Assembly: GCA_041663665.1 (NCBI GenBank)
Contig: JBAYMG010000005.1
Span: forward strand, 1,354-65,353
Reading direction: 5' to 3'
Length of the DNA: 64,000 nucleotides
Source: Candidatus Omnitrophota bacterium
GTDB taxonomy: Bacteria > Omnitrophota > Gorgyraeia > Gygaellales > Profunditerraquicolaceae
Part shown: in pieces, positions 27,999-54,483 of the stretch
How positions within the stretch are numbered: position 1 is the stretch's first letter
Layout: every line of letters starts with the position of its first letter
Notes under the pieces: model-generated
What the model saw: only the letters and a program-made list of their open reading frames with translations
What the model was told of the DNA's origin: nothing
Databases searched by the model: none
Program-made: the position numbers and the translations under genes

Positions 27999-28190
27999 GA
28001 TTTTCGCTAGACAAAAGCTTAAGGTGCCTATCCTGCCTCACTATGTTCGACAGGATTTCGCTAGACAAAAGCTTAAGGTGTCTATCCTGCCTCACTATGT
28101 TCGACAGGATTTCGCTAGACAAAAGCTTAAGGTGTCTATCCTGCCTCACTATGTTCGACAGGATTTCGCTAGACAAAAGCTTAAGGTGCT
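27999..28190. repeat. Tandem direct repeat array, 54-bp unit, about 3.5 copies (first unit 55 bp)
   Basis: ATTTCGCTAGACAAAAGCTTAAGGTG(C/T)CTATCCTGCCTCACTATGTTCGACAGG repeats at 27999, 28055, 28109 and 28163 (the last partial). The only variation is one SNP and one extra T in unit 1. Confidence 0.95.
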
Positions 28191-28199
28191 TAATTTTAC

Positions 28200-28234
28200 T
28201 TGACAAATGATACTTATATGGTATCATTAATGAT
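28200..28234 (+). promoter_or_regulatory. Promoter TTGACA-16-TATCAT overlapped by the operator-like palindromes ATGATAC-N7-GTATCAT and ATCATTAATGAT
   Basis: TTGACA is at 28200-28205. The inverted repeat spans 28207-28227 and overlaps -10, and a 12-bp perfect palindrome lies at 28223-28234. Confidence 0.55.
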
Positions 28235-28255
28235 GTATGAAGGAGGTGATTAGAT

Positions 28256-28333
28256 ATGGAAGTAACGATTAAGTATATGCTTAGGCCGGTAGCCCACTGT
28301 AAAGAAGGCTGCAGTAGATTGTCCCGGGCATGA
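28256..28333 (+). CDS. 25-codon ORF with a perfect 10-nt Shine-Dalgarno (leader peptide or small protein)
   Basis: AAGGAGGTGAttagatATG; the peptide is MEVTIKYMLRPVAHCKEGCSRLSRA. Confidence 0.35.
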   Translation: MEVTIKYMLRPVAHCKEGCSRLSRA

Positions 28334-28384
28334 CGATAAACTACCCACCGTTTTTATAAAATATGATTAGGAGAAGAAGTAGTT

Positions 28385-28783
28385 ATGAAATTGATTACCA
28401 GGAATACCGATTATGCGCTGCGCGCAATTTGTTATATTTCCAAACAGAAGGGGATAGTTGCTGTTGATGAGTTGGTCCGCAAGCTTGATGTGCCTGGTCC
28501 GTTTATGCGCAAAATTCTGCAGCAGCTAAGTAAAGAAAAAATTTTAGAATCTTACAAAGGCCAATCTGGAGGTTTTAAATTAAGAGTCTCACCTTTAAAA
28601 ATTTACGTAATTGATATTATGCGTATTTTCCAGGGCCGTTTCAATTTAAGTGAATGTTTTCTGAAAAAAAATATCTGTCCGGATAAGGGCAAATGTGCCT
28701 TGAGTAAGAAAATACACGCTATTGAAGAGAATGTATTTAAGCAACTTAAACAAATCAGTATTGCTTCTTTAACCGCTGGATAA
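28385..28783 (+). CDS. Rrf2-family transcriptional regulator (NsrR/IscR-like, three conserved Cys)
   Basis: wHTH (TRNTDYALRAICYIS) and a C-x6-C-x5-C cluster (ECFLKKNICPDKGKCA). Confidence 0.85.
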   Translation: MKLITRNTDYALRAICYISKQKGIVAVDELVRKLDVPGPFMRKILQQLSKEKILESYKGQSGGFKLRVSPLKIYVIDIMRIFQGRFNLSECFLKKNICPDKGKCALSKKIHAIEENVFKQLKQISIASLTAG

Positions 28784-28806
28784 TCATATGTTTGAAAGGG
28801 GAATTG

Positions 28807-29037
28807 ATGTTGAATAAATGTCCGGGCCAAGATGAACGTAAAGCCAGGGCCGAAAATATAATTTGTTCTAATTGTGGTTATTTAGCTGAAATTTTTTCTG
28901 ATGAAATTCAGGTTAATTGTCCGAAATGCAAGAATCTAATTTCTAAGGAACTGCTTCCTTCTTGCATTGATTGGTGTAAGGCAGCCAGGGAATGTATTGG
29001 AGAACAAAGGTGGCGTAAACTTCAAGGGGGTGTGTAA
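28807..29037 (+). CDS. Small Cys-rich zinc-ribbon-like protein, translationally coupled to hcp
   Basis: CSNCGY...CPKC plus a CIDWC...C cluster. SD AAAGGGGA, and the stop overlaps the hcp start. Confidence 0.45.
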   Translation: MLNKCPGQDERKARAENIICSNCGYLAEIFSDEIQVNCPKCKNLISKELLPSCIDWCKAARECIGEQRWRKLQGGV

Positions 29038-30326
29038 TGTTTTGTTACCAATGTGAGCAGACAGCTCTAGGCACGGGTTGCACAAAATCCGGTGTATGCG
29101 GTAAAAATGAGGATATCCAAAGCTTGCAAGATACGCTTTTGTACGGTTTAAAAGGTATCGCTGCTTATGCGTTTCATGCCCGCCAATTAGGTTTTCGCGA
29201 TGAACAGGTAGATGCTTTTCTGCACGAAGCACTTTTTAAGACTATAACTAATGTAAGTTTTGACTTAAATCAATATCTTGAGTTGGTTTTGAGATGCGGA
29301 GAAATGAATTTAAAGATAATGGAGGTGTTGGATAAAGCGCATACACAAAAATTTGGTAATCCTGTACCCACACAGGTTGAAACCGGAACAAAAGCCGGCC
29401 CGGGTATTTTAATTACCGGGCATGATTTGTTGGATCTTTATGAACTGCTTAAGCAAACTGAAGGCACAGGGATAAATGTTTATACGCATGGGGAAATGCT
29501 TCCGGCACACGGTTATCCGGAGTTGAAAAAGTTTAAGCACTTAGCAGGTAACTACGGTGGGGCTTGGCAGGAGCAGAAAAAAGAGTTTAACACTTTTAGC
29601 GGTGCTTTGTTAGCAACGACAAACTGTGTGTTAATTCCTCCGGAAAATACGTATTTGGACAGGCTTTTTACGATAGGTATTACCGGTGTGGCAGGGGCAA
29701 CGCATTTAAAAAATCGTGATTTTAAGGCTCTGATGGGAAAAGCTAAATCATTACCTCCTTTGCCGGATGCACCGGGCAAAAAGATTTTAACCGGGTTTCA
29801 TCATACGGCAATTTTAGGCTTAGCAGATAAAATTATTCTAGCGATTAAAGCCGGGAAAATTAAGCATTTCTTTTTGATTGGCGGATGCGATGGTGCAAAG
29901 CCGGGCCGCAATTATTACACAGAGTTTGCCGAAAGAGTGCCTCAGGATTGCATAATTCTCACTTTGGCTTGTGGTAAATATCGTTTTAACAAGCTTGATT
30001 TTGGTGAGATAGAGGGTATTCCCAGGTTAATTGATATTGGACAGTGCAATAATGCTTATTCTGCCATTCAAGTAGCAGTGGCATTGTCTAAGGCATTTAA
30101 TTGTACAGTAAGCCAGCTTCCTTTGACCCTGGTGCTTTCCTGGTTTGAGCAAAAAGCAGTTGCCATTCTATTATCTTTATTGTATCTTAATATTAAAGGT
30201 ATCTATATCGGGCCAACTCCACCGGCATTTATCAGTAAAAATGTTTTTGGCCTCTTACAAGAAAAATTTGACCTGAAACTAATTAGTACTCCAGAGAGTG
30301 ATTTAAAAAAGATATTGGGAAAATAG
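29037..30326 (+). CDS. hcp: Hybrid-cluster protein (hydroxylamine reductase), short class-3 type
   Basis: N-terminal MFCYQCEQT...GCTKSGVCGK cysteine motif. 429 aa. Confidence 0.85.
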   Translation: MFCYQCEQTALGTGCTKSGVCGKNEDIQSLQDTLLYGLKGIAAYAFHARQLGFRDEQVDAFLHEALFKTITNVSFDLNQYLELVLRCGEMNLKIMEVLDKAHTQKFGNPVPTQVETGTKAGPGILITGHDLLDLYELLKQTEGTGINVYTHGEMLPAHGYPELKKFKHLAGNYGGAWQEQKKEFNTFSGALLATTNCVLIPPENTYLDRLFTIGITGVAGATHLKNRDFKALMGKAKSLPPLPDAPGKKILTGFHHTAILGLADKIILAIKAGKIKHFFLIGGCDGAKPGRNYYTEFAERVPQDCIILTLACGKYRFNKLDFGEIEGIPRLIDIGQCNNAYSAIQVAVALSKAFNCTVSQLPLTLVLSWFEQKAVAILLSLLYLNIKGIYIGPTPPAFISKNVFGLLQEKFDLKLISTPESDLKKILGK

Positions 30327-30340
30327 CGAGGAGGCGGATA

Positions 30341-30736
30341 ATGGCAGATTTTAAAGATTTATTGCAGAGTGCAGACTGGAAAACTGAAAAACACGCCCCG
30401 GTTATTGATGTGCCGGACAAGATAAGCAAGGGTGACATTTTAAAGATCGATGTCAGTGTCGGTAAACAAATAGCCCATCCGAATACTACTGATCATCATA
30501 TTAAATTTATCGAAGTATATTTTTTAGCAACCGGGGAGAAATTTCCTTATCAGGTGGCTCGTTTTGAGTTTACTGTGCATGGAGAGTCTACTCAAGGGCC
30601 AAATACCAGTACTATATTCTCTGAGCCTAAGATAACCACATCTTTTAAGACTGAAAAAAGTGGCGTAATTATGGCTGTTTCTTATTGTAATATTCATGGG
30701 CTTTGGAAGAGCGAGAAAGAAGTTAAGGTAGAATAA
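30341..30736 (+). CDS. Superoxide reductase (1Fe-SOR/neelaredoxin-type)
   Basis: EKHAPVIDV motif and His/Cys ligand spacing in a 131-aa protein. Confidence 0.8.
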   Translation: MADFKDLLQSADWKTEKHAPVIDVPDKISKGDILKIDVSVGKQIAHPNTTDHHIKFIEVYFLATGEKFPYQVARFEFTVHGESTQGPNTSTIFSEPKITTSFKTEKSGVIMAVSYCNIHGLWKSEKEVKVE

Positions 30737-30758
30737 GGGGCGAAAAAAGGAGGTCAGT

Positions 30759-31142
30759 ATGTGTTGTATTTTTTTGTTTACAGCTTTAAAAGCGATTGTT
30801 CCGATTGCGATATTATTGACAATAAGTTTCTTTGTTCTTTTGTCGATGCGCAAAGTAGAAGAGAAAGGTTTAAGGGCTTTTGGTTATGTGGCGGTAAGTT
30901 TTCTTTGGCTGGCAATTTTAGTAGTCTTTTCAGGGGCAATTTATAAAACGGCTGCCGGTCCTTTTGGGGAGAGGCGTACAGCGCAGCAAAAGATGAGAAA
31001 TTGCGATATGCCGCAGATGATGCAGCAAAACAGAATGCCGAACATGGTTATGCCGGATAAAGGTATGTCGGTTAAGGATGAAAGAAATTTTAAGGCTCCT
31101 AAGTGTGGTGGGAATAAAGGGATGGTGTTTAAAGCAGAATAA
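30759..31142 (+). CDS. Hypothetical membrane protein with Met-rich C-terminal tail
   Basis: TM helices followed by a QKMRNCDMPQMMQQNRMPNMVMPDKGM tail. Confidence 0.4.
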   Translation: MCCIFLFTALKAIVPIAILLTISFFVLLSMRKVEEKGLRAFGYVAVSFLWLAILVVFSGAIYKTAAGPFGERRTAQQKMRNCDMPQMMQQNRMPNMVMPDKGMSVKDERNFKAPKCGGNKGMVFKAE

Positions 31143-31175
31143 ATTATTGATTAGGATTTTATGCCAGGAGGGAAA

Positions 31176-31337
31176 ATGGGTAAATACAAATGTTTGGTCT
31201 GCGGTTATATTTACTACCCTAGTGCCGGAGATCCGGAGAATGGAATTGCCCCGGGTACAAGTTTTGAAGATTTACCAGATACCTGGGTTTGTCCCGAATG
31301 CGGCGTCGGTAAAGACCAATTTGAAAAAGTAGTTTAG
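31176..31337 (+). CDS. Rubredoxin (53 aa; absent from the provided ORF track)
   Basis: [53 protein letters not shown], with the two CxxCG knuckles. Confidence 0.85.
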
Positions 31338-31362
31338 TTTCTAGCTAGAGTATTAAGTTAAA

Positions 31363-32067
31363 ATGCCTCAGGAGATTCAGGTAAAAGTAAAAGAAATTAT
31401 CCAGCGTAATTATAATGTTAAGAGCGTTCGACTGGACCTTGCCGGTAATTTAGATTTTAAAGCCGGACAATTTCTTTCTGTTTCCATTGGCAGTGGACCG
31501 GGGATGAAAAAATACCTTTCTATTTCCAGTTCTCCGACCGAAAAATGTTATTTAGAATTTACTAAGAAATTAAGCGCAAGTGATTTTTCTAAGGCGCTGG
31601 ATAATTTAAAAGCCGAGGATGAAGTAACTATCCAATATCCTTTCGGTAAGTTTGTTTTGGATGAGGTTTCCCCTAAGATTGCTTTTTTATCCGGCGGGAT
31701 TGGGATTACTCCTATCCGCAGCATGATCAAATATGTAGTCGATAAAAATTTAGGCACTGATGTAGTGTTGGTTTATTCAAATCGAGCCGTGCGGGATATA
31801 GTTTTTAAAGAAGACCTTGAAGGGATGCAAAAGAAATATCCTCTTTTAAAAGTTTCACATATATTGTGTGAAGCCGAACCGAAATTTAATTGTATTGTCG
31901 GTTTAATTAACAGCAGGATAATCAGAGATGAAATTCCAGATTACCAGGAAAGAAAGTTTTATCTTTGTGGCCCGCCGTTGATGGTTGAAGCAATGCACAA
32001 AATACTGTCTGATGATTTAAATTTAACTGAAGAAAAAATAATTAGAGAAAACTTCCAGGGTTATTAA
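31363..32067 (+). CDS. FNR-like FAD/NAD(P)-binding oxidoreductase (candidate NAD(P)H:rubredoxin reductase partner)
   Basis: FAD-binding six-stranded barrel plus a NAD-binding pattern (GQFLSVSIG...LSGGIGITP). Confidence 0.6.
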   Translation: MPQEIQVKVKEIIQRNYNVKSVRLDLAGNLDFKAGQFLSVSIGSGPGMKKYLSISSSPTEKCYLEFTKKLSASDFSKALDNLKAEDEVTIQYPFGKFVLDEVSPKIAFLSGGIGITPIRSMIKYVVDKNLGTDVVLVYSNRAVRDIVFKEDLEGMQKKYPLLKVSHILCEAEPKFNCIVGLINSRIIRDEIPDYQERKFYLCGPPLMVEAMHKILSDDLNLTEEKIIRENFQGY

Positions 32068-32093
32068 TTTGTTTTAAGTCAGGGGGGGGCTTA

Positions 32094-33278
32094 ATGGCAG
32101 CTACAAAGATATTACCGGATATATATTCAGTCGGGGTTGTTGATTGGAATGTACGTAATTTTCACGGGCATACGTATACTACGCAGAGAGGCTCTAGCTA
32201 TAATGCTTATTTGATAATTGATGAAAAGATTACGCTGGTTGATACTGTTCATGGTGCGTTCGCTCAAGAATTAATTGACAACATTAAGGAAGTTATCCCT
32301 CTTGAAAAGATCGATTATATTATTGTCAACCATGTGGAATCTGATCATTCTGGGGCGCTGCCTGATATTATGCCGCTTTGCCCTAGAGCTAAAATTTTGG
32401 GCACTGCTAAGTGTAAAGAAGGCCTGTATAGGCATTATTATAAGGATTGGGATTTTCAGGTTGTTAAGACAGGGGATGAGTTGAAGCTGGGCAGGCGCAC
32501 CCTTTCCTTTATTGAAGCTCCGATGATTCATTGGCCGGACAGCATGTTTACTTACTGTCTGCAAGATGCCTTGCTTATGCCTAATGATGCTTTTGGCCAG
32601 CATTTTGCTGCAAGCGAACTTTTTGATGACCAGGTTGATCAGTGTGTTTTAATGGATGAGGCTGAAAAATATTACGCTAACATTCTTTGGCCGTTGGGAT
32701 CAGTAATCCTGAGGAAAATCCAGGAAGTTCAGAAATTAAATATACCGATTAAGATAATCGCACCCAGCCATGGAATTATCTGGCGTAAAGATCCGAATAA
32801 AATAATTAATGCTTATGTTTCCTGGGCTAAAGGTGAAACTAAAAATAAAGTAGTTATAGCTTATGAGACGATGTGGGGAGCAACTGAGAAAATGGCTAAG
32901 AAGATTGCCCTGGGCATCCAGTCTCAAGGGGTAGAGGTTAAGCTTTATGATGTAGCTGGCAGTGATCGTACCGAAATAATTACTCAAATGTTGTCTTCCA
33001 GTGGTTTTCTTTTTGGCTCTTCTACCCACGACAATGATATGCTGCCGAATATCGCCGGTTTCTTGGAAATTGTTAAAGGCCTTAAACCTAAAGGCCGGCA
33101 AATAAGTTTTTTTGGTTCATACGGCTGGGCCGGCGGAGCAGTCAAGGAAATGCAGGAAATGCTTGTTAATAGCGGAGCTAACTTTAATCTTCCGGGGGTG
33201 TCTTTTAAATATGTCCCCGACAAGGCTGAGTTAGAAAACTGTTTTAAATTTGGCGTCAATTTTGCCAAACTTTTATAA
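32094..33278 (+). CDS. Flavodiiron protein (rubredoxin:O2/NO oxidoreductase, FprA/ROO)
   Basis: Metallo-beta-lactamase-like HVESDHSG diiron motif plus a C-terminal flavodoxin domain. Confidence 0.85.
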   Translation: MAATKILPDIYSVGVVDWNVRNFHGHTYTTQRGSSYNAYLIIDEKITLVDTVHGAFAQELIDNIKEVIPLEKIDYIIVNHVESDHSGALPDIMPLCPRAKILGTAKCKEGLYRHYYKDWDFQVVKTGDELKLGRRTLSFIEAPMIHWPDSMFTYCLQDALLMPNDAFGQHFAASELFDDQVDQCVLMDEAEKYYANILWPLGSVILRKIQEVQKLNIPIKIIAPSHGIIWRKDPNKIINAYVSWAKGETKNKVVIAYETMWGATEKMAKKIALGIQSQGVEVKLYDVAGSDRTEIITQMLSSSGFLFGSSTHDNDMLPNIAGFLEIVKGLKPKGRQISFFGSYGWAGGAVKEMQEMLVNSGANFNLPGVSFKYVPDKAELENCFKFGVNFAKLL

Positions 33279-33757
33279 TGAAGCAAATTTCCCCGGAACT
33301 AATTAGTTTTTTACATCTCCAAAGTTTTGTGATAGTTACTTCAATAGATAAGGGGGGTTTTCCCCATAGTTCATGTAAAGCCATAGCCAAGATTGATTCG
33401 GTTGGTTTGATTTATCTAATTGATGTTTATCGCGGATTGACCGGTGAGAATATAAAACGTAATCCGTTAGCTGGCATTAGCGTTGTTGATGAGCATAAAT
33501 TTATAGGCTATTGTTTTAAGGGTAAAGCTAGAATTTTGCCTGATGATAACATAAGTCAGGAGATGATTAAGAAATGGGAGGATAATATTACCTCTCGTTT
33601 GGCAAAAAGATTATTGGTAAACTTATCTGCTGATAAAACTTTACGGCATCATCCTGAGGCTAGCTTGCCAAAACCCCAGCAGCTTATTGTTTTTGAGGTT
33701 GAGGATGTAGTTGATCTTGCTCCGCGTCACTTAAAAAAGGAGGTAACACATGGCTAA
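33278..33757 (+). CDS. Split-barrel FMN-binding protein (pyridoxamine 5'-phosphate oxidase-like), tentative
   Basis: Size and hydrophobic pattern only. Confidence 0.35.
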   Translation: MKQISPELISFLHLQSFVIVTSIDKGGFPHSSCKAIAKIDSVGLIYLIDVYRGLTGENIKRNPLAGISVVDEHKFIGYCFKGKARILPDDNISQEMIKKWEDNITSRLAKRLLVNLSADKTLRHHPEASLPKPQQLIVFEVEDVVDLAPRHLKKEVTHG

Positions 33758-33986
33758 AAGTGTAAAAGTTTACAGTACTCCTACTTGCCCCTGGTGCCTT
33801 CGGGTTAAAGGTTTTTTAAAGGAAAATAATATTGAATTTAAGAATTTTGATGTTGCAGTTGATTCCGGCGCAGCAGACGAAATGGTTAAAATCAGCGGAC
33901 AAATGGGTGTACCGGTTTTAGATATTGAAGGTGAAATTATTGTTGGGTTTGACAAAGAAAAAATAAAGCAGTCGCTAAATTTATAA
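33750..33986 (+). CDS. Glutaredoxin-like protein (CPWC active site)
   Basis: YSTPTCPWC thioredoxin fold at 78 aa, directly upstream of trxB. Confidence 0.65.
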   Translation: MAKSVKVYSTPTCPWCLRVKGFLKENNIEFKNFDVAVDSGAADEMVKISGQMGVPVLDIEGEIIVGFDKEKIKQSLNL

Positions 33987-34000
33987 TTTTTCGGGTCGCC

Positions 34001-34918
34001 ATGCAAATCTACGATTTGATTATTATCGGCGCAGGTCCAGCGGGAATTACAGCCAGTATTTATGCGGCTAGAAAAAAGCTGAATTTTTTAGTGATTAGCT
34101 TAAATATCGGCGGGCAAGCTGCCTGGAGCGGGGATATTGAAAATTATACCGGTTATCAATTTATTACCGGACCGGATTTGGCGCAGAAATTTGAAGAGCA
34201 TATTCGTAAATACGGTATTGAGCTTAAAGAAAATGAAGCGGTTCTTGCGCTTAAGAAGTCCGGCGAAACAATTTTCGTAAAAACCAATAAGGCAGATTAT
34301 CAGGCAAGATGTGTAATTATTGCTTCGGGGAAGAAATCAAAAGAACTGGCAGTCCCGGGAGAAAACGAATTTAAGAATCATGGTTTAACCTATTGCGCAA
34401 CTTGTGATGGGCCATTGTTTTCAGGCAGGGACGTAGCCGTAATCGGCGGCGGTAATTCTGCACTAGATGCTGCTTTGCAGTTAATTAAAATCGCCAGGTT
34501 TATTTATATAGTAAATAGCGCAGACCAGCTCCTCGGGGATATGGTAATGCGTCAGAAGATAGAAGAAGCTGGCAATGTTAAGATTTTAAATAATTCCCAA
34601 GTTTTAGCTGTGCTTGGTGATAAATTTGTTAAGGCGATTAAAATAAAGTATGGGGGAATAGAAAAAGAATTGGCAGTTAGTGGTGTTTTTGTTGAGATCG
34701 GGCTTTTTCCCAATTCCGAATTCGTAGAGGGAGTTGAAAAAAATCAAAAAAAGGAAATTGTCGTTAATTTGCATAACCAAACGAATATTCCAGGGATTTT
34801 TGCCGCGGGGGATGTTACCGATGTCCCGGAGAAACAGATTATTATTGCTGCCGGAGAAGGTTCAAAAGCTGCCCTAAGTGTTTTTCGTTATTTGGCTAAG
34901 ACAAGGTTTTCGGGATAA
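34001..34918 (+). CDS. trxB: Thioredoxin-disulfide reductase
   Basis: GAGPAG FAD motif and the CATCDG redox-active disulfide. Confidence 0.8.
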   Translation: MQIYDLIIIGAGPAGITASIYAARKKLNFLVISLNIGGQAAWSGDIENYTGYQFITGPDLAQKFEEHIRKYGIELKENEAVLALKKSGETIFVKTNKADYQARCVIIASGKKSKELAVPGENEFKNHGLTYCATCDGPLFSGRDVAVIGGGNSALDAALQLIKIARFIYIVNSADQLLGDMVMRQKIEEAGNVKILNNSQVLAVLGDKFVKAIKIKYGGIEKELAVSGVFVEIGLFPNSEFVEGVEKNQKKEIVVNLHNQTNIPGIFAAGDVTDVPEKQIIIAAGEGSKAALSVFRYLAKTRFSG

Positions 34919-34979
34919 ATATGTTGTCAGTATTTTTTGCGATGGTACAATAAAACAAAATTAACCAGAGGAGGATAAG

Positions 34980-35201
34980 ATGAGAGAGAGAATCGAAAAA
35001 GCTTTAGATAAAGTCAGGCCGATGTTAGCTGCGGATGGTGGTAATGTTGAATTAGTTGATGTAACAGCTGACGGGGTGGTTAAATTAAAGTTAAAAGGAA
35101 GCTGCGGATGCTGTCCGATGAGCTCGATGACCTTAAAGAACGGCATTGAGAAAATCTTAAGGCAGGAAGTTCCGGAAATAAAAGAAGTAGTCGCGTTATA
35201 A
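34980..35201 (+). CDS. NifU-like (Nfu) Fe-S cluster carrier domain protein
   Basis: [11 protein letters not shown] motif. Confidence 0.75.
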
Positions 35202-35217
35202 TTGAGTTTTAGCCGTA

Positions 35218-40350: not shown

Positions 40351-40447
40351 ACTACGTTCGACAGGATTTCGCTAGATAAAAGCTTAAGGTGCCTATCCTG
40401 CCTCACTATGTTCGACAGGATTTCGCTAGACAAAAGCTTAAGGTGCT
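40351..40447. repeat. Second locus of the 54-bp repeat family (about 1.8 copies)
   Basis: actacGTTCGACAGG + ATTTCGCTAGATAAAAGCTTAAGGTGCCTATCCTGCCTCACTATGTTCGACAGG + ATTTCGCTAGACAAAAGCTTAAGGTGCT. It is near-identical to the 27999-28190 units. Confidence 0.95.
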
Positions 40448-40457: not shown

Positions 40458-40485
40458 TTGACAAATTCAAGAAATATTATAAAAT
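40458..40485 (+). promoter_or_regulatory. cspA promoter TTGACA-16-TAAAAT with about 120-nt 5'UTR
   Basis: TTGACA lies 10 bp after the last repeat unit. Long 5'UTRs are typical of cold-shock genes. Confidence 0.55.
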
Positions 40486-40614
40486 ATTTAACGTAGTGAG
40501 CAAGGGAGTTGAAGTCTTAAGCCGTTTGGTGAAAGAATAATACACCTTACGGTTTTTTGTTTTTATACTTCTTTTGTCCGCTATAATTATAGTGGAAAGG
40601 AGGAAGCAGAGAAA

Positions 40615-40815
40615 ATGGCAAAAGGTAAAGTAAAATGGTTTTCTAATCAAAAGGGATATGGTTTTATCACTCCTGAGAATGGTGCTGATGTCTTCGTACA
40701 TCATACCGCAATTCAGGGCGAAGGCTATAAGACCTTAGAGGAGGGCCAAGAGGTTGAATTTGAAATTGAAAAAGGTCCCAAAGGTGAACAAGCTACTAAA
40801 GTAGTGAAGTTATAA
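40615..40815 (+). CDS. cspA: Cold-shock protein CspA family
   Basis: [19 protein letters not shown]1 and VFVHH RNP2 motifs in a 66-aa protein. Confidence 0.9.
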
Positions 40816-46004: not shown

Positions 46005-46017
46005 AAGAAAGCCCGAA

Positions 46018-47211: not shown

Positions 47212-47393
47212 CAAATATCATTTGATTTATTAATTAAATTTGATAGAATTATTATCAGTAAGTTGCCGCGTTTTGAGGTAGTAGTTGCGCGGGTGCGCCT
47301 TGCGTGGTAAGGAGGTGAGAGGAAGTTTTTAGTAACACCAGATATAATAACCGTCATAATAGAATAATTTTAAATTTTAGAGAGGAGAGCAAG

Positions 47394-47828
47394 ATGAAAA
47401 GGTTGTTAGGTTTAATGGTTGTGGTTTTAGTATTAGCAGGGTTATCTGGCTGCGGGAAAAAACAGGAAGCGGAAGAGTTACAGCCAATTACTATGGAATC
47501 TTTAGGTGCGGCTAATTCTCTATCTGTAGCTACTGCGGATACTAAGGCTCCGGTTGTTGAAGCGGCATCTGTGCCAGCGGCTAAAGAGGTATTACCTTTA
47601 CCGCCACAGGGTCCGTATAAGCCCACAGGTATTGAAATTCAGACTGCTTTAAAGAATGCCGGATTCTATACTGGAAGCGTCGACGGTAAAGTCGGTCCAA
47701 AAAGCAAAAAAGCGATTGAAGATTTTCAGTCCGCAAATGGTTTAAAAGCTGATGGAAAAGTTGGCCCAAAAACTTGGGAAGCATTGGCTAAGCATTTAAC
47801 TGCTGCCCCGGTTTCAGCTAAAAGATAA
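47394..47828 (+). CDS. Lipoprotein with C-terminal peptidoglycan-binding (PG_binding_1) domain
   Basis: Lipobox LAGLSGCGKK and a PG-binding motif (IQTALKNAGFYTGSVDGKVGPKSKKAIEDFQSANGLKADGKVGPKTWEAL). Confidence 0.65.
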   Translation: MKRLLGLMVVVLVLAGLSGCGKKQEAEELQPITMESLGAANSLSVATADTKAPVVEAASVPAAKEVLPLPPQGPYKPTGIEIQTALKNAGFYTGSVDGKVGPKSKKAIEDFQSANGLKADGKVGPKTWEALAKHLTAAPVSAKR

Positions 47829-47859
47829 ATAAAGAGGCTCTAGACTGATTTATATTTTG

Positions 47860-47902
47860 TTTAAAGAGGATCCCAGCATTTTATGTTGGGATTTTCTTTT
47901 TT
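47860..47902 (+). terminator. Probable rho-independent terminator (imperfect hairpin plus T-run)
   Basis: ggATCCCAgcattttatgtTGGGATtttcttttttc. Confidence 0.4.
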
Positions 47903-47923
47903 CGGGTGCTATAATAAGGCCAT

Positions 47924-49141
47924 ATGAAAAAATTTCCGCATAATTTTTTTTGGGGTGCGGCTACTAGCGCGCATCAGGTCGAAGGGAACAACATCTATAA
48001 TGACTGGTGGAACGCTGAACAGAATGGTTCTTTAAAAGCAGTTTCTGGCCAGGCCTGTTGTCATTATGAGCTATACCAGGAGGATTTTGAAATTGCCAAA
48101 GAACTTAATCATAATTGCCATCGTTTCTCTATCGAATGGAGCCGGATTGAGCCGCAAGAAGGTAAATTCGACCAGTCGGAAATTGAGCATTATCGTAAAG
48201 TCCTTGTTGAATTAAAAGATAAGGGGCTTGAGCCGGTGGTTACCCTGCATCATTTTACTAGCCCTCTCTGGTTTAGCCAAAAAGGCGGTTGGACTAAATT
48301 TAAACTGCAGAAATATTTCCTGCGATTTGTTGAAAGGATAGTTGAGGAGTTTGCCCCCCAAGTAAAATTCTGGATAACAATAAATGAACCGTTAATTTAT
48401 TCATCGCATTCTTATCTTTTGGGAGTTTGGCCGCCTAAACAATGTTCACTATTTAAGACTGCCAAGGTAACCTTGAATATGGCCAAGGCTCATATTCAAG
48501 CCTATCAAATTATACATAAAATTTATCAGGATAAATTGTTAGAGAAGCCAATGGTCAGTATTGCTGCTAATCTTCAGGCATTCGAGATTTGCCAGCCGAC
48601 TTTAAAAAATAAATTAGCACTTTATCTCCGGCATAAATTCTATAATCTTTATTTTATTGAGATGCTTTTGCGTAAGAAAACTTTGGATTATATCGGAATC
48701 AATTATTACGGTAGGAATTTAGCGGATGTACGTAGCTGGGGGATAAAGCACTTGCTGTTAGATACTTGTATGCAGAATCATCATCCGTTACGCAAGAATT
48801 CCTTAGGCTGGGATATTTACCCGCAGGGATTATATAAACTGGCGATTGCACTTAAGAGATATAAGCTTCCGATTTTTATTACTGAAAACGGCATATGTAC
48901 CGAGGATGATAACTTAAGATGGGATTATATACGGGAGCATTTGGAAGAATTACATAAGGCAATGCAGGAAGGATCCGGTATTTTAGGTTATATTTACTGG
49001 TCGCTGATTGATAACTTTGAATGGGATAAAGGGTTTGGGCCCCGGTTCGGCCTGGTTTATGTGGATTATCAAAATCAAAAACGGACCATTAAACCAAGCG
49101 CAAAAAGGTTTGCTGCCATCGCCAAAAGCGGTGAAATTTAA
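47924..49141 (+). CDS. Family-1 glycoside hydrolase (beta-glucosidase)
   Basis: FFWGAATSAHQVEGN N-terminus, with the acid/base NEP and nucleophile ITENG motifs. Confidence 0.85.
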   Translation: MKKFPHNFFWGAATSAHQVEGNNIYNDWWNAEQNGSLKAVSGQACCHYELYQEDFEIAKELNHNCHRFSIEWSRIEPQEGKFDQSEIEHYRKVLVELKDKGLEPVVTLHHFTSPLWFSQKGGWTKFKLQKYFLRFVERIVEEFAPQVKFWITINEPLIYSSHSYLLGVWPPKQCSLFKTAKVTLNMAKAHIQAYQIIHKIYQDKLLEKPMVSIAANLQAFEICQPTLKNKLALYLRHKFYNLYFIEMLLRKKTLDYIGINYYGRNLADVRSWGIKHLLLDTCMQNHHPLRKNSLGWDIYPQGLYKLAIALKRYKLPIFITENGICTEDDNLRWDYIREHLEELHKAMQEGSGILGYIYWSLIDNFEWDKGFGPRFGLVYVDYQNQKRTIKPSAKRFAAIAKSGEI

Positions 49142-51154
49142 ATGAATCTTAAAGATAAAGAATTTATAATCAAAGAGATGCCTTTTTTTGCCGGATTAAG
49201 CAAGTCAGAGCTTGCAGCCGTTTGCGCAAAAAGCCAGATTATCGAATGTTCCAAGGGGCAGGTTATTTACGAGGAGGGGTCTGCCCCAAGTGCTTTTTAT
49301 TGTATTATTTCAGGACGGGTGCAAATTTATACCAAGGGTAAAGATGGCAACCAGCTAATTCTAGAGTATCTTCACCGGGGTAAATATTTTGGGATCATTT
49401 CTCTTTTGACTAATGAGCCGCATTCGGTTTCAAGTGTGGCGATCAATGATTGCTCAATTTTAGTAATTAGAAAAGATGATTTTGATGTTGTATTGCAGGA
49501 TATCCCGCATTTAGCTATTGACTTAAGCCGTACATTAAGCCGCCGGCTTAAACGGAAAGATATACATCAGAAGAAGATATTTGAAAGCATGGTTATTTCT
49601 ATTTTTAGTTCTTATGCTCAGGCAGGTAAAACCGTTTATGCCCTGAATCTCGCTTTAAGTTTAAATCGCGAGACACATAAATCTGTAATCATTCTTGATA
49701 TCCTGCCTAAAGATAAAATACACACTTTACCTGCTAAATTAGAAATTCAGCCGCCGCCAATATTGAATTTATCTTCTGTCCTGGATATCTATACTTTACC
49801 AAAAGATTATATTTTAAAAAGTAATTTTGGCGTAGACTTGTGCTGTTTTTACTATGAAGAAAATAATGCTCTATGCCTTAAAAGGTTAATTGAGATGTTA
49901 AGTCTCTTGGTTAACGACTATCACTACATTGTTCTTGATTTGCCGGCAGCTATGGATTCTTCGATTATTAGCATGCTTAATCAATCGGATCTTATTCATA
50001 TATTAACCAGCCCTGATTCAGTAGACTTGAAACGCACCAATAATCTTATCAGCCGGTTAAGAACAGATTACAATTTTGATCTTAAAAAAATAAAAACTAT
50101 TGTTAATGAGTATAAGCTCGCTAAGATTAATTACAGTAATCAGATTGAGATCCTGGGCCAGGATATTTTTGCGACAATCCCGAGGATTGAATTTGATGCG
50201 TCCCAGCGTTTGATTATTGATGATCCTGACTGTGAATATGCTAAAACAGTCAGGAGGATTGCCCGTCAGTTAGGGGATTGTCTTGTGGGATTGGTTTTAG
50301 GAGTAGGAGTGGGTTATGGATTTTGTCATATCGGGGTACTCAAGGTTATTGAAGAAGAAAATATCCCGATTGACGTTATTGTGGGTTCGAGTATGGGATC
50401 TCTAATTGCCAGCCTTTGGGCGATTGGTAAAAGCAGCAGTGAGATCTTAGAGATTACCCGGGATTTCAGAGAACCTAAACATATTTGGGGTTTAATTGAT
50501 GTAACTTTTCCGAGAGTAGGTTTTATCAAGGGTAATAAGCTGTATCGTTTTTTGAAGAAACATCTCGGGGACAAAACTTTTTATGATACCAAACTTCCTT
50601 TAAAGATCATTGCTAGTGATGTGCGCAGGAAGGAACCAAAGATTTTAGATAAAGGTTATTTGGTTGATGCTATAATGGCCAGTTGTTCTATGCCGGGGGT
50701 CTTTGCGCCTTTCAATTTTAAAGGAGATATACTTTTTGACGGAGGGGTTACTTATCCCCTGCCTACCGAACCATTGGTGCAGATGGGAGTAAGAAAGATT
50801 ATTGCGGTAAACGTTACTCCTTCCCGGGAGGATATTTTAAAACAGCTAAAAAAAATTAAAAAAGAAATTTCTTTAGAGCCGGTAGGGCAAGCCTTAATTA
50901 AAAAACCGTTCAGTTTATTACAGCGGTTAAAAAGTATTTTTAATCTTAATATCGTTGAGATTATCTTTAGCAGTGTTGAGGTTTTACAATCGGAAGTTGC
51001 TCAAAGTGAAGGCGAATTAGCCGATATAGTTTTGCATCCAGATACTACCGGTTTATTTTGGCTGGAGCTGTATAAGGCCGATGAGTTCGCCCAACGCGGA
51101 GAGGATGAAGCGCGTAAACATTTGGATCAGATTCGACAATTAGTTAATGAATAA
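49142..51154 (+). CDS. Three-domain protein: cNMP-binding (CAP effector) domain, degenerate ParA/MinD-like domain and patatin-like phospholipase
   Basis: cNMP-binding pattern (FAGLSKSELAAVCAKSQIIECSKGQVIYEEGS...RTLSRRL). Middle ParA-like domain with a deviant P-loop (ISIFSSYAQAGKTVYALNLALSL ... HYIVLDLPA). Patatin GxGxxG (GLVLGVGVGYGFCHIGVL) and GxSxG (GSSMGS) motifs. Confidence 0.7.
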   Translation: MNLKDKEFIIKEMPFFAGLSKSELAAVCAKSQIIECSKGQVIYEEGSAPSAFYCIISGRVQIYTKGKDGNQLILEYLHRGKYFGIISLLTNEPHSVSSVAINDCSILVIRKDDFDVVLQDIPHLAIDLSRTLSRRLKRKDIHQKKIFESMVISIFSSYAQAGKTVYALNLALSLNRETHKSVIILDILPKDKIHTLPAKLEIQPPPILNLSSVLDIYTLPKDYILKSNFGVDLCCFYYEENNALCLKRLIEMLSLLVNDYHYIVLDLPAAMDSSIISMLNQSDLIHILTSPDSVDLKRTNNLISRLRTDYNFDLKKIKTIVNEYKLAKINYSNQIEILGQDIFATIPRIEFDASQRLIIDDPDCEYAKTVRRIARQLGDCLVGLVLGVGVGYGFCHIGVLKVIEEENIPIDVIVGSSMGSLIASLWAIGKSSSEILEITRDFREPKHIWGLIDVTFPRVGFIKGNKLYRFLKKHLGDKTFYDTKLPLKIIASDVRRKEPKILDKGYLVDAIMASCSMPGVFAPFNFKGDILFDGGVTYPLPTEPLVQMGVRKIIAVNVTPSREDILKQLKKIKKEISLEPVGQALIKKPFSLLQRLKSIFNLNIVEIIFSSVEVLQSEVAQSEGELADIVLHPDTTGLFWLELYKADEFAQRGEDEARKHLDQIRQLVNE

Positions 51155-51167
51155 TCAAGGGGGTATT

Positions 51168-51638
51168 ATGAAAAGCAAGGCGCGGTTATTTTCTTCTTTT
51201 TTATTATGTTTATTAATTCCTGTTTTTTTGGGATGCTCGACGGCTAAAGAGATGGGAAAAGGTTTTATCGGCGTATCAACTCAAGTCTTAGAACAAAAGC
51301 GCAATGCTGCCTTGAGCAAATCTTTTGCTTTGGGTTATAATGATTGCTATGCGAAGGTTAAGGATATCTTAAATGAGAAAGATAAAGAATCCTATATTTA
51401 TTCCGAGGATCTTAAAAAGAAAATGATTGCCTTTTATCTTACTCCGTCAGACACTACTCCTGTGGGAATATTTTTTACTGAGCAAACCGGGGGGAATACC
51501 TTGATTGAAGTGTCCAGCCCGAGTACTTATGCTAAAGAAGAAATCGCCAATAGAATTTTTAGCGGGATTAATGTTTTAATTAAATCTAAAATAACTAAGG
51601 AGAATCCGACTGATGTTAAAGAAAAAGCTGGGAATTAA
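51168..51638 (+). CDS. Hypothetical lipoprotein (start probably at MKSKARL)
   Basis: Lipobox LLCLLIPVFLGCST. Confidence 0.45.
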   Translation: MKSKARLFSSFLLCLLIPVFLGCSTAKEMGKGFIGVSTQVLEQKRNAALSKSFALGYNDCYAKVKDILNEKDKESYIYSEDLKKKMIAFYLTPSDTTPVGIFFTEQTGGNTLIEVSSPSTYAKEEIANRIFSGINVLIKSKITKENPTDVKEKAGN

Positions 51639-51921
51639 AGATTTAATCAAAGAGTGCCATAGTGTTGCTAAAAGTAAGGGTTGGTGGGATACTGAGCGTA
51701 ATGATGGAGAGTTGATTGCGTTGATGCATTCTGAACTATCTGAGGCTTTGGAAGCTATGCGCAAACACGATGAAGAGAATAATCTGGCGGAAGAGCTGGC
51801 TGATTGCTGTATTCGTATATTTGATTATTGCGGTTCGCGTAAGATAGATTTAGAGGAAGCTTTATTGAAGAAGATTGCATATAATAAGACCCGGCCTTAT
51901 CGCCACGGGAAGAAGTTTTAA
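51613..51921 (+). CDS. MazG-like nucleoside triphosphate pyrophosphohydrolase (small all-alpha type)
   Basis: ELIALMHSELSEALEAMRK and EELADCCIRIFDYCG motifs (EExxE/D metal sites). Confidence 0.6.
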   Translation: MLKKKLGIKDLIKECHSVAKSKGWWDTERNDGELIALMHSELSEALEAMRKHDEENNLAEELADCCIRIFDYCGSRKIDLEEALLKKIAYNKTRPYRHGKKF

Positions 51922-51936
51922 AAGGGAGGAACAGCA

Positions 51937-52170
51937 ATGCCATATGATAGCAGCTTGGATGCACAGCAATTCAGCCGTTTTTGGGAAAATGATTCGGGTA
52001 AAATTGTGGTCAGCGTTTATTCTTATAACAACGGCCCTAAGAAAATTCAAATTGTTAGAGAGATTAAAGATAAAAATGGGGAGTATGCTTTTGCAAAACT
52101 CGGCCGTTTGACCAAAGATGAGGCTCAAGGAGTATTGCCATTAATTCAGGAAGCCCTGAAGAATATGTAA
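51937..52170 (+). CDS. Hypothetical small protein (77 aa)
   Basis: ORF with upstream SD AAGGGAGGAACAG; no recognisable motif. Confidence 0.35.
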   Translation: MPYDSSLDAQQFSRFWENDSGKIVVSVYSYNNGPKKIQIVREIKDKNGEYAFAKLGRLTKDEAQGVLPLIQEALKNM

Positions 52171-52173
52171 GGT

Positions 52174-53748
52174 ATGGCACAAGGGACAAAAAGGGATAGT
52201 TGGGGGTCGCGTTTAGGAATTATTATGGCTGTTGCCGGTTCAGCTATCGGCTTGGGTAATTTTTTACGTTTTCCGGCTAAGGCGGCATCCAATGGCGGCG
52301 GGGCCTTTATGATCCCGTATTTTATTTCTCTGCTTCTTTTAGGCATACCTCTGATCTGGATTGAATGGACCCTGGGCCGTTACGGCGGAGGATTTGAGCA
52401 TGGCACAGCACCCGGGATATTCCATAGCCTTTGGCAAAAAAACCGCTTTATAAAATATTTTGGAATAATTGGGATATTTGGGCCGCTGGTTATTTTTATT
52501 TACTATGTTTTTATTGAGTCTTGGACTTTAGCTTACAGTTTTTTTGCTTTAACCGGTAAATATACTGTTCTTACTGATCAAAATTCACTGCATAATTTTT
52601 TAATCGGTTTTCAGGGATTAGAGAAGAATCAGTATTTTAATGGTATTGGGACAGCTTATTCCTTTTTTTTGATTACTTTCCTAATAAATGTCGGAGTTGT
52701 CTATTACGGAATAAGAGGGGGGATAGAGAAATTTTGTAAATGGGCAATGCCGCTTTTATTTATTTTTGGTATAGTCCTGATGATCAGGGTGTTGACCTTA
52801 GGCGCCCCGGATTTAAGTAAGCCTGCTTGGAATATTAATAATGGTTTTGGTTTTTTATGGAATCCAGATTTTTCCGCGTTAAAATCAGCTAAGGTCTGGT
52901 TGGAAGCTGCCGGACAAATATTTTTTACTTTAAGCGTGGGTATTGGAGTAATTCTTACTTATGCCAGTTACTTAAAGAAAGCTGATGATGTTGTGCTCTC
53001 CGGCCTTACTGCTGCAATTACTAATGAATTTGCTGAAGTTGTACTCGGAGCAAGTATAATCATTCCGGCAGCATTTGTATTTCTCGGCCCGGTAGATATA
53101 AAATCTATTGCCCAATCGGGAGTATTTAATTTAGGTTTTGTAACTATGCCGTTAGTTTTAAATAAGCTGCCTTTACCTGAGCTTTTCGGATTTTTCTGGT
53201 TCTTTTTATTATTTTTAGCCGGGATAACTTCTTCAGTTTCGCTGGCGCAACCGGCAGTGGCTTTTTTAGAGGATGAATTTAATATTAATCGTAAGCGCGC
53301 TGTTTCTATTTTTAGCATAGTTTCATTTATTTTATGCCAACCGGCGGTATTTTTTCTAGGCAGAGGAGTAGTTGACGAGCTTGATTTTTGGGGTGGAACT
53401 TTCTTTCTGGTAGTTTTCGCAACGATTGAGACAATATTATTTGCCTGGGTATTTGGTATGGACCGGGCATGGGAAGAAATACATAAAGGTGCGGATATGT
53501 CTGTTCCAAAAATTTATAAATTCATTATTAAATATATTACTCCTTTATTTTTGTTTATTATATTAGGAATGTGGTTTGTGCAAGAATGGCTGCCAATAAT
53601 CATGATGAAGAATGTGCCTAGCGCAGATAAGCCGTTTATTTTTGGCACACGTTTGGGGTTATTGCTGTTATTTATGATTTTAGCAGTTTTAGTAAAAATT
53701 GCCTGGAAACAGAGGGCTCAGGAAGTATCAAAAGAAAGGCTAAAGTGA
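52174..53748 (+). CDS. Neurotransmitter:sodium symporter (SNF/NSS) family transporter
   Basis: NSS TM1 motif (AVAGSAIGLGNFLRFP) and TM6 motif. Confidence 0.85.
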   Translation: MAQGTKRDSWGSRLGIIMAVAGSAIGLGNFLRFPAKAASNGGGAFMIPYFISLLLLGIPLIWIEWTLGRYGGGFEHGTAPGIFHSLWQKNRFIKYFGIIGIFGPLVIFIYYVFIESWTLAYSFFALTGKYTVLTDQNSLHNFLIGFQGLEKNQYFNGIGTAYSFFLITFLINVGVVYYGIRGGIEKFCKWAMPLLFIFGIVLMIRVLTLGAPDLSKPAWNINNGFGFLWNPDFSALKSAKVWLEAAGQIFFTLSVGIGVILTYASYLKKADDVVLSGLTAAITNEFAEVVLGASIIIPAAFVFLGPVDIKSIAQSGVFNLGFVTMPLVLNKLPLPELFGFFWFFLLFLAGITSSVSLAQPAVAFLEDEFNINRKRAVSIFSIVSFILCQPAVFFLGRGVVDELDFWGGTFFLVVFATIETILFAWVFGMDRAWEEIHKGADMSVPKIYKFIIKYITPLFLFIILGMWFVQEWLPIIMMKNVPSADKPFIFGTRLGLLLLFMILAVLVKIAWKQRAQEVSKERLK

Positions 53749-53903
53749 AATTTGCCGGTTGGTTCTTTTTAATTCTTTCTTGGGGTTTAATTCTTGGTTT
53801 GGTTTTTTTCTGTTTTTTTAAGGTTTTTTCAAAAAGCATCCGGAGTTAATGTGTATTTCTTCGGCGTGTCTTTTTGAGGCTGCCCTTTAGGTAAGGAGAA
53901 GAG

Positions 53904-54287
53904 ATGAAAAAAGTTTTAGCATTAAGCCTGATCCTAGGTTCTTTGGTATCAATTTGCGGGTGTGCACCTTTGATAATTGGGGCAGCAGCAGGAGGGCTGG
54001 GGGCGTATGGGGTAAGCAGGGATACTGTGCAAGGCGATACGGATAAAAATTATGAAGAGCTTTGGGCTTCAGCTTTGAATGTTTCCTCAGCCTGCGGTTT
54101 GATTCAGCAGGAAGATGCTGCAGGTGGTTATATTGAACTAGGTACTCAATCTAGTAAGGTTTGGATAAAGTTGGTCCGTTTAACTCAAACTGCTACCCGG
54201 GTTAAGGTGTCTGCGCGTAAGTATCATTTTCCAAATATGGAACTGGCGCAGGATATTTTTGTTAAGATTATTACCGGGGTTAAGTAG
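53904..54287 (+). CDS. Hypothetical lipoprotein (glycine-zipper-like)
   Basis: Lipobox LILGSLVSICGC and a GAAAGGLGAYG segment. Confidence 0.45.
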   Translation: MKKVLALSLILGSLVSICGCAPLIIGAAAGGLGAYGVSRDTVQGDTDKNYEELWASALNVSSACGLIQQEDAAGGYIELGTQSSKVWIKLVRLTQTATRVKVSARKYHFPNMELAQDIFVKIITGVK

Positions 54288-54290
54288 ACG

Positions 54291-54483
54291 CTCTAGATAC
54301 TTGATCTTACTATCGTTCGATCAAGTATTTCGCTGGATAAAACCTTTGGGGTGCTCTAGATACTTGATCTTACTATCGTTCGATCAAGTATTTCGCTGGA
54401 TAAAATCTTTGGGGTGCTCTAGATACTTGATCTTACTATCGTTCGATCAAGTATTTCGCTGGATAAAATCTTTGGGGTGCTCA
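54291..54483. repeat. Tandem direct repeat array, 63-bp unit, 3 copies; diverged member of the same family with an internal 10-bp inverted repeat
   Basis: CTCTAGATACTTGATCTTACTATCGTTCGATCAAGTATTTCGCTGGATAAAA(C/T)CTTTGGGGTG repeats at 54291, 54354 and 54417. Each unit contains ATACTTGATC-N12-GATCAAGTAT, and the core ACTAT.GTTCGA...ATTTCGCT.GA.AAAA.CTT..GGTG is shared with the 54-bp units. Confidence 0.95.

Follow-up and report, generated by a model that had tools for sequence, protein, structure and literature searches.

Three tandem arrays of one repeat family

The Omnitrophota are uncultured, ultra-small bacteria with compact genomes, and to our knowledge interspersed repeat families have not been reported from them. 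In 64,000 nucleotides of a Candidatus Omnitrophota genome (contig JBAYMG010000005.1; this whole stretch is referred to as the window), three intergenic sites carry arrays of a small repeat whose unit consists of a hairpin and a conserved tail. The arrays were detected with Tandem Repeats Finder (TRF), by inspection of the sequence and with a covariance model (CM), R1. TRF reported array 1 at 28002-28188 (period 54, 3.5 copies, 99% matches, score 367) and array 3 at 54290-54482 (period 63, 3.1 copies, 99% matches, score 379), and array 2 (40351-40447, about 1.8 x 54 bp) was seen by inspection. The 54-bp and 63-bp units are homologous (alignment A1), and the core common to the three arrays, ATTTCGCTRGAYAAAAKCTT, occurs nine times on the + strand of the window, always inside the arrays, where 0.11 occurrences are expected by chance. 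A scan of the window with CM R1 found no copy beyond the three arrays, all of which end in GGTGCT(C/T)AA. An initial annotation of this DNA had described three tandem arrays of one dispersed family with this common end, and both observations are confirmed. The arrays and their immediate surroundings are as follows.

27999-28190, + strand: array 1, a tail-only, 5'-degenerate first unit (28001-28028) and then three 54-bp units; the CitMHS transporter gene (end 27746) lies on one side and the promoter of the Rrf2-hcp operon on the other
28029-28082, 28083-28136 and 28137-28190, + strand: the full units of array 1, 54 bp each, with the tail TTTCGCTAGACAAAAGCTTAAGGTG(C/T)(C/T)
28030-28056, 28084-28110 and 28138-28164, + strand: hairpins ATCCTG-N15-CAGGAT of array 1
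28200-28227, + strand: sigma-70-type promoter of Rrf2-hcp, TTGACA-16-TATCAT with TG (11/12), 9 nt past the GGTGCT of array 1 and outside the repeat
40351-40447, + strand: array 2, a 5'-truncated unit (40351-40393) that begins within the hairpin loop and a full 54-bp unit (40394-40447); a 96-aa open reading frame (ORF; end 40331) lies upstream and the cspA promoter downstream
40395-40421, + strand: hairpin of the full unit of array 2
40458-40485, + strand: cspA promoter TTGACA-16-TAAAAT (11/12), 10 nt past the GGTGCT of array 2 and outside the repeat
54290-54484, + strand: array 3, three canonical (type A) 63-bp units with the tail TTTCGCTGGATAAAAYCTTTGGGGTGCT, beginning 2 nt past the stop codon of the DUF3568 gene (54287) and ending in CAA; tRNA-Phe lies downstream
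about 54297-54328, 54360-54391 and 54423-54454, + strand: hairpins GATACTTGATC-loop-GATCAAGTATC of array 3
54512-54521, + strand: extended -10 promoter TGTG-TACAAT, outside the repeat and conserved in repeat-free relatives
54548-54619, + strand: tRNA-Phe(GAA), downstream of array 3

CM R1 scores are 47.2 and 36.6 bits in array 1, 44.2 bits in array 2 and 90.7 and 85.0 bits in array 3. Pfam tables of the 64 kb contain no cas, transposase or integrase gene, and those of the whole window together with 18 kb of flanks list housekeeping genes only, in agreement with the earlier remark that no mobile-element genes lie nearby.

Anatomy and folding of the unit

Each unit is a variable hairpin directly followed by a conserved tail of about 33 nt, and it measures 54-63 bp, or more where inserts are nested in it. 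The tail consists of ATTTCGCTRGAYAAAA, 6-8 variable nt and GGTGCT, and in the last unit of an array (C/T)AA and an A/T run come next. Conservation in the hairpin is limited to its structure and to the closing bases AT(C/A)C...G(G/T)AT. At least three loop/stem types occur; type B is CCTGCC-TCGTAAACTC-GGCAGG, and type C has a variable stem around the loop TTCGCTNNGCTC. Stems of 7-14 bp are present at every unit, and the hairpin abuts the tail in 26 of 26 folded units, including those of types B and C with their unrelated stems. Across 17 aligned canonical units, 97% of the cells of the 10-bp stem are paired, as compared with 16-41% when the 3' partner is slid, and compensatory changes are seen at two stem positions (CG<->AU in six sequences, AU<->GC in four). 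These compensatory changes argue for a folded single strand rather than a duplex palindromic operator. Alignment of the units shows no covariation inside the tail, and a pseudoknot in which CUAGCG of the loop would pair with CGCUAG of the tail was rejected for lack of covariation, the middle positions of the loop being variable and their partners invariant.

The tail still abuts the hairpin in units of L002, L003 and L012 that contain nested palindromes. These GC-rich perfect palindromes lie in first units (L002/L016, ~4975-5035; L003, ~4055-4075; L012, ~135-165), either within the tail at CGC^TAG or within the loop of the hairpin, which suggests a second tiny palindromic insert or insertion hot spots.

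Several simple identities were tried and rejected. ORFs cross arrays 1 and 3, but the tail falls in one reading frame in the 54-bp arrays and in another in the 63-bp array, and units of 55 and 62 bp occur at other loci, so that a coding repeat is not supported; for the same reasons the unit lengths first noted as multiples of three and integral numbers of helical turns are coincidences. As a sigma-70 promoter on either strand, the best candidates in the tail (TAGACA...ATTTTA and TTGAGC...TAGCGA) have no usable -10, and a promoter scan of the tail gave one weak 9/12 site only. Likeness to IHF sites or DnaA boxes is confined to partial matches in type A hairpins and is absent from types B and C. 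The initial annotation had seen no terminator-like U-tracts; a scan for intrinsic terminators indeed finds none in the arrays, and the hairpin is followed by AUUUCGCU without a U-tract. Moreover, the element is read through in operons: leuB (L014) and tRNA-fMet need read-through, and the element is thus not a terminator.

Distribution of the family

At least 20 independent loci were found, and the counts out of 20 and out of 18 given below refer to these loci. Every identifiable locus is in Candidatus Omnitrophota. An exact-pattern scan with one genome per species returned at least four contigs, and the matches listed were all Candidatus Omnitrophota metagenome-assembled genomes (MAGs; GTDB). 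A scan of metagenomes added at least 11 genuine contigs without a taxonomic label and one match (L005) that fits the search pattern but lacks the tail and was treated as a chance match. The independent assemblies that carry the element come from at least 15 samples and studies. No copy was found in searches of viral contigs, plasmids and phages. The proposed covariance search of Rfam gave nothing at gathering thresholds and only chance-level matches at E<=10 (mir-26, 17.8 bits; IMES-3, 15.8 bits), and no paper describing the element was found in the literature. The element is a previously undescribed family, found, among the identifiable loci, only in Omnitrophota, and its earlier characterization as an uncharacterised one still stands.

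The window belongs to an Omnitrophota MAG; its MFS protein is 100% identical to a protein of an NCBI MAG, and the same organism is also present in ENA assembly ERZ27247350. This genome carries seven loci in ~82 kb, all of them intergenic (CM R1), as compared with none in ~147 kb of its syntenic relatives. Four of the seven lie in the 18 kb that flank the window:

divIC, a unit, tRNA-fMet
GH94 gene, two units, a promoter, hisG
comEC, two units, a promoter, bamD
one degenerate antisense copy beside tRNA-Ala and tRNA-Leu

Solo tails without a hairpin were found nowhere in 340 kb, and the idea of the solo tail as an ancestral cis-element parasitised by hairpins was rejected on this ground. About 7 kb upstream of the window start in the same genome (L028, 2400-2680), a degenerate antisense copy of the element is intermingled with direct-repeat families of 40 nt (x2) and 38 nt (x2) between tRNA-Ala(GGC) and an AP-endonuclease gene, and the 3' end of the tRNA there belongs to a 15-bp inverted repeat.

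Presence and absence at orthologous sites

The relatives compared are represented by seven 21-kb syntenic loci with conserved gene order, whose MFS or oxidoreductase proteins are 75-88% identical to those of the window. The CM found no copy in these seven loci at E<=1. Jointly they cover the CitMHS/Rrf2, ORF/csp, DUF3568/tRNA-Phe, divIC/tRNA-fMet and ftsH/eno sites, and the element is absent at all five of them, at Rrf2 and csp in L032 and L033 and at tRNA-Phe, tRNA-fMet and eno in L019-L024. At the site of array 3, the DUF3568 gene and tRNA-Phe of the relatives are separated by 75 nt that include the TGTG-TACAAT promoter; the window has this sequence as well and, in addition, the array of ~190 bp. 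At the site of array 1, one relative has 7 nt between the CitMHS stop codon and an identical promoter and another has ~200 nt of unrelated filler; TAATTTTAC-TTGACA, the native sequence of the Rrf2 promoter, is kept in relatives without the repeat. At the site of array 2 a relative holds a different filler with GAGCTAT heptamers, and the cspA promoter is conserved in L032, which is without the repeat. It is also evident that the element is present in other genomes where that of the window has none. L011 (MFS 74% identical) carries a three-unit array between the divergent -35 boxes of csp and tRNA-Thr, where the window has 25 nt. Similarly, L004 carries one unit before the -35 box of eno, a place that is without a unit in the genome of the window and in five relatives; L024 has a different, hairpin-rich insert there. 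The element is neither a fixed part of the promoter nor an obligatory activator site.

Where the sequences could be aligned, homology picks up again in the A/T-rich 9-12 nt that precede the -35 box, or else in the A/T run just ahead of a tRNA. Because homology resumes at this point and unrelated fillers occupy the same slot, the constant spacing to the -35 box appears to be the edge of the constrained promoter and not a functional phasing of the repeat. Where filled and empty sites can be aligned, the 3' junction of the element precedes a native (C/T)A and an A/T run, and the 5' junctions are obscured by the degenerate first units. A search for further loci and for association with promoters had been suggested at the outset: at least 20 loci were found and nine of 20 arrays are promoter-proximal, but the orthologous promoters of relatives are without the element.

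The slot upstream of conserved promoters is itself hypervariable (L032, 16420-16575 and 4726-4925; L024, ~19195-19330; L033, 3720-3727). Its contents in the relatives are GAGCTAT x3, a terminator-like filler, a ~130-bp hairpin-rich insert before the -35 box of eno, or 7 nt.

Genomic context of the loci

The -35 box of a promoter match (9-11/12) begins 8-12 nt past GGTGCT in nine of the 20 arrays, while the background at random positions is 2.6%. The initial observation that arrays end about 10 bp before TTGACA (28200 and 40458 in the window) thus extends to other loci, and array 3 is a tenth array before a promoter, of the conserved extended -10 type. The genes downstream are Rrf2, cspA, tRNAs, eno, hisG, bamD and leuB. 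Other copies are placed differently. In L001 and L009 the element is preceded by a good promoter and forms the leader of tRNA-Leu; the element abuts the mature 5' end of the tRNA in three of the six tRNA-linked arrays; and the divIC-element-tRNA-fMet arrangement places it within a transcript context. In L014 a pair of units separates leuD from leuB, with the ATG of leuB 3 nt past CAA and the AGGTG of the tail 5 nt ahead of this ATG. Copies antisense to both neighbours are found in L002/L016, L003 and L006/7 (secE-nusG) and once in the genome of the window. The element is not tied to one position relative to the promoter. Nor is it associated with Rrf2, since the Rrf2 genes downstream of the element in the window and in L008 are only 22% identical and are not orthologues.

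With respect to replication, the leading strand is the + strand (GC skew +0.15 to +0.19), and six of the seven copies in the genome of the window are on +. This skew holds throughout positions 1-64000 and nearly all genes of the window are on +, which fits one replichore with an extreme gene-strand bias.

Copy number and modularity

Arrays contain 1 to 3.5 units, strictly head-to-tail, and the number is not constant. A second assembly of the same organism has 2.5 units at array 1 and one at array 3, where the window has 3.5 and three. Several short contigs (L012, L013, L015, L018 and L029) end in the repeat or close to it. Although the element itself is real, its unit counts in short-read assemblies are uncertain.

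Arrays 1 and 2, which lie 12 kb apart with unrelated flanks, have an identical 52-nt unit in common, and such identity at two loci with unrelated flanks points to recent copying between them. Within one array the tails are identical even where they are rare variants (one rare tail, ATTGTTATGGG, occurs twice in L026, array 18580-18690, and another, AAAAACTTTAGG, twice in L028, 8273-8385), and the hairpins between them are of different types. Moreover, the promoter-proximal unit is intact and the distal unit is degenerate or truncated.

Nature of the element

Only the reading as a small, non-autonomous interspersed repeat fits all contexts. That the family is a repeat of the REP/BOX/MITE-like kind (REP, repetitive extragenic palindrome; MITE, miniature inverted-repeat transposable element), locally amplified, has in our judgment slightly better than an even chance of being right, and the REP-like family that the initial annotation had kept as its second choice is the better-supported of its two proposals. 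Whole units would be copied from locus to locus, probably by a trans-acting enzyme that reads the folded single strand (hairpin and tail) in the manner of REP/RAYT or of IS200/IS605-type HUH enzymes; the structure-conserved hairpin, the near-invariant asymmetric tail, the (C/T)AA and A/T junction and the strand bias together give the element its likeness to elements handled by HUH/Y1 enzymes. The arrays would then grow and shrink locally by slippage or by unequal recombination between tails, and hairpin modules would be swapped among otherwise identical tails. Persistence would be limited to a few non-essential gaps of the compact genome, namely those from an upstream stop codon to the UP/-35 region of the next promoter, tRNA leaders and, occasionally, gaps between operon genes; survival only in such free gaps would explain the regular position about 10 nt before -35 boxes. 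We infer that the element is mobile, that its mechanism is a single-strand, HUH-like one and that it has no host function; most likely it is an ordinary genomic parasite or filler, selfish or near-neutral.

Several observations weigh against this reading. The tail is near-invariant across lineages whose proteins have diverged by 25% and whose intergenic DNA is unalignable; invariance of this kind implies strong selection, and a host function could equally well be its source. Six of the 20 arrays lie at most 70 nt upstream of a tRNA gene (Phe, fMet, Leu x2, Ala and Thr), tRNA adjacency is enriched 15-fold, there is enrichment beside the strong promoters of csp and eno, and 14 of 18 scorable copies point in the same direction as the gene downstream, the other four being antisense. 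The folding strand is in conflict, with 21 G.U pairs on the hairpin-to-tail strand versus three on the opposite one, but a mean folding energy that favours the opposite strand. No transposase, RAYT or other mobilising enzyme was identified, the ~82 kb of the genome of the window being without a Y1 transposase; no target-site duplication is discernible, and a clear terminal inverted repeat is seen in L004 only.

Some of these observations are what host cis-regulatory DNA would produce. A nucleoid-associated or activator protein would bind the tail, whose two blocks lie about two helical turns apart, and/or the hairpin, and arrays at about -47 and upstream would boost or insulate tRNA, csp and eno promoters, comparable to FIS sites and UP-elements. 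The ten promoter-proximal arrays, the tRNA adjacency, the co-orientation and the conservation of the tail across lineages are consistent with such a role. However, the orthologous promoters of close relatives work without the element and vice versa, copies also lie downstream of promoters as tRNA leaders, against tRNA 5' ends, in an operon and antisense between genes, and the constant spacing coincides with the onset of conserved native promoter sequence. The compensatory stem changes indicate a folded single strand, and units of 54, 55, 62 and 63 bp keep no single helical phase. The dedicated cis-regulatory or architectural binding-site array that the initial annotation had put first is therefore not upheld, and we regard a cis-regulatory function in general as unlikely.

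A functional RNA module is to our mind just as doubtful. Read-through would bring the arrays into transcripts, or they would be part of leaders, and at the RNA level the hairpin and tail would serve as a 3'-end stabiliser of the upstream mRNA, as an endonuclease site at GGUGCUC|UAGAU, as a source of unit-length small RNAs or as a tRNA leader that aids RNase P. The element is certainly transcribed in L001, L009, L014 and at tRNA-fMet, most copies are co-oriented with their flanking genes, and inspection by eye shows no canonical terminator from the upstream gene to the array, as judged without a formal scan at every locus. The AAGGUG of the tail is Shine-Dalgarno-like, and the AGGTG of the tail lies ahead of leuB in L014. 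The hairpin covaries, and the excess of G.U pairs favours the hairpin-to-tail strand. Against a role in RNA, mean folding energies favour the other strand and the four antisense copies do not fit; neither the tail nor the tested loop-tail pseudoknot covaries, and no Rfam family matches. A terminator in particular would have a U-tract and would not sit where operon read-through is required, and presence/absence among close relatives speaks against an essential role.

We think it improbable that a dedicated machinery recognises the folded hairpin with its 33-nt tail, the arrays being built by it or feeding it. In one version, a single-strand integrase or HUH enzyme would add interchangeable hairpin cassettes beside a duplicated ~24-nt repeat at the promoter-proximal end; in another, transcripts would be cut at GGUGCUC|UAGAU, which would release small RNAs of unit length whose 3' tail is conserved across the phylum. 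If this were true, it would be a new nucleic-acid system specific to Omnitrophota. More specifically, an integrase might build the array as in CRISPR adaptation, with the ~24-nt repeat (CTAGAYAAAA..GGTGCTC) duplicated at each integration of a hairpin cassette at the promoter-proximal end. The R-H-R-H-R order, the identical repeats with differing hairpins within an array, and the intact promoter-proximal beside degenerate or truncated distal units would all follow. However, the 'spacers' are palindromes of a few types common to several genomes and do not differ from one another within the window arrays, the 64 kb and its flanks contain no cas or integrase gene, no hairpin-less solo repeat exists in the 340 kb, and tandem duplication with gene conversion of hairpins gives the same pattern, so that this origin is very improbable. 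An artefact of short-read metagenome assembly can practically be dismissed. Copy number does vary by assembly, and the ends of several short contigs fall in the repeat or close to it, but independent assemblies, unique flanks and locus-specific hairpin and tail variants all attest the element.

As a small non-autonomous repeat, the element marks strain-level variation, may contribute to contig breaks in short-read MAGs and flags non-essential slots beside promoters and tRNA genes. The near-invariant 33-nt tail implies a trans-acting partner, be it a mobilising enzyme or a host protein or RNA. Should the element modulate tRNA, csp or eno expression, this would be a case of a streamlined genome with mobile regulatory DNA.

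Neighbouring genes

Between array 1 and its downstream operon lies a 25-aa micro-ORF, MEVTIKYMLRPVAHCKEGCSRLSRA (28256-28333, + strand), with a strong Shine-Dalgarno sequence. It sits in a ~170-nt leader that runs from the promoter at 28200 to the Rrf2 gene of an Rrf2-hcp-desulfoferrodoxin-rubredoxin cluster. Two relatives have retained the micro-ORF, at 80% and 88% identity, with YMLRPVAHCKEGCSRLS invariant and with nucleotide differences that, by eye, appear mostly synonymous. It may encode a Cys-x3-Cys leader or regulatory peptide.

Two cold-shock protein genes of the window (40615-40815, + strand; 54675-54875, - strand) have long 5' untranslated regions. The leader at 40490-40614 is conserved with L032 and that at 54876-55000 is conserved across relatives; the Rfam cspA-thermoregulator model gave no match at the two leaders.

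The tRNA-fMet gene downstream of divIC is interrupted after the anticodon loop in L020 (~20848-20900), L024 (~21010-21150) and L004 (~740-790, minus strand). The interrupting sequence resembles the start of a group I intron, and no tRNA is called by ARAGORN at these places. An intact copy of the gene is present in the genome of the window (L026, 14914-14990) and in L019 and L022.

Comparison with known systems

Two kinds of tandem array can be set aside. The element is not a CRISPR array, as had been noted at the outset: whole units are identical in the window, the intervening segments are palindromic hairpins of a few shared types, and there are no cas genes in the 64 kb and its flanks. The toxI sequences of type III toxin-antitoxin systems are tandem repeats of ~36 nt that immediately precede a gene for a toxN-like endoribonuclease, and no such gene lies directly downstream of the element. 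The likeness to FIS sites and UP-elements is one of position (about -47 and upstream) and of association with tRNA and other strong promoters. This position fits 9-10 of the 20 arrays; three lie downstream of a promoter or abut a tRNA and four are antisense. The element differs in being dispensable at orthologous promoters, in lying also downstream of promoters and antisense, and in covarying like a folded single strand.

IS200/IS605 elements carry a subterminal hairpin that is recognised on one DNA strand, insert beside a short fixed motif without duplication and are biased in orientation relative to replication; their derivatives without an ORF are known as PATEs. Similarly, the array end abuts (C/T)AA and A/T, units end in ...TCAA, and six of seven copies are on the leading-strand sequence, where the target motif is inferred from four filled/empty comparisons. 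The element differs in having one hairpin per unit instead of a left and a right end, and no TnpA was found.

REPINs are mobilised by RAYT Y1 transposases. Their likeness to the element, as that of REPs and BIMEs, is extensive: all are short extragenic hairpin repeats, many per genome, with stems kept by structure, confined to intergenic gaps, variable among related genomes, tolerated inside transcripts and without a transposase nearby. By the defining traits of REPs, BIMEs and REPINs (PMC2817692, PMC3733652, PMC3116915), the element fits the description of an imperfect extragenic palindrome of 20-40 bp in many copies. In REPs, one end of the palindrome also carries a GTAG or CGTC tag (PMC3733652), and neighbouring REPs alternate in orientation within clusters (PMC2817692). 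However, neither tag is conserved at the hairpin foot on either strand (alignments A1 and A2), the feet being (CTAG)AT(C/A)C...G(G/T)ATTTCGC, and the units are head-to-tail and never alternating or inverted. In addition, the most conserved part of the element is its non-palindromic 33-nt tail, the hairpin sequence being interchangeable, and no RAYT gene was identified in the ~82 kb.

MITEs such as the Correia elements insert near promoters and can be transcribed (background of PMC3049150). The element resembles them in being small, AT-rich, structured and non-autonomous, but its units are shorter and in tandem and it has no discernible target-site duplication. Terminal inverted repeats are found in L004 only (TTGAGCACTCCTTG...CAAGGAGCTCAA), the 5' and 3' ends being unrelated in other copies.

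The pneumococcal BOX element, boxA-boxB(n)-boxC, is a composite with an internal module in tandem and in variable number; BOX elements are intergenic stem-loops; some are co-transcribed, spurious ORFs can arise from them, and effects on nearby genes are possible (PMC3049150). In modularity the element fits this type, with hairpin and tail modules, 1 to 3.5 units and a number that varies among assemblies. It differs, by inspection, in having no distinct A and C end modules that form terminal inverted repeats and in belonging to a different phylum; its repeated unit is the hairpin together with the tail, and its arrays end in GGTGCT(CAA). By these comparisons the element is classed as a small interspersed hairpin repeat that is distinct from REPs, MITEs and BOX elements in their defining traits, being set apart from the boxA/B/C organisation by inspection.

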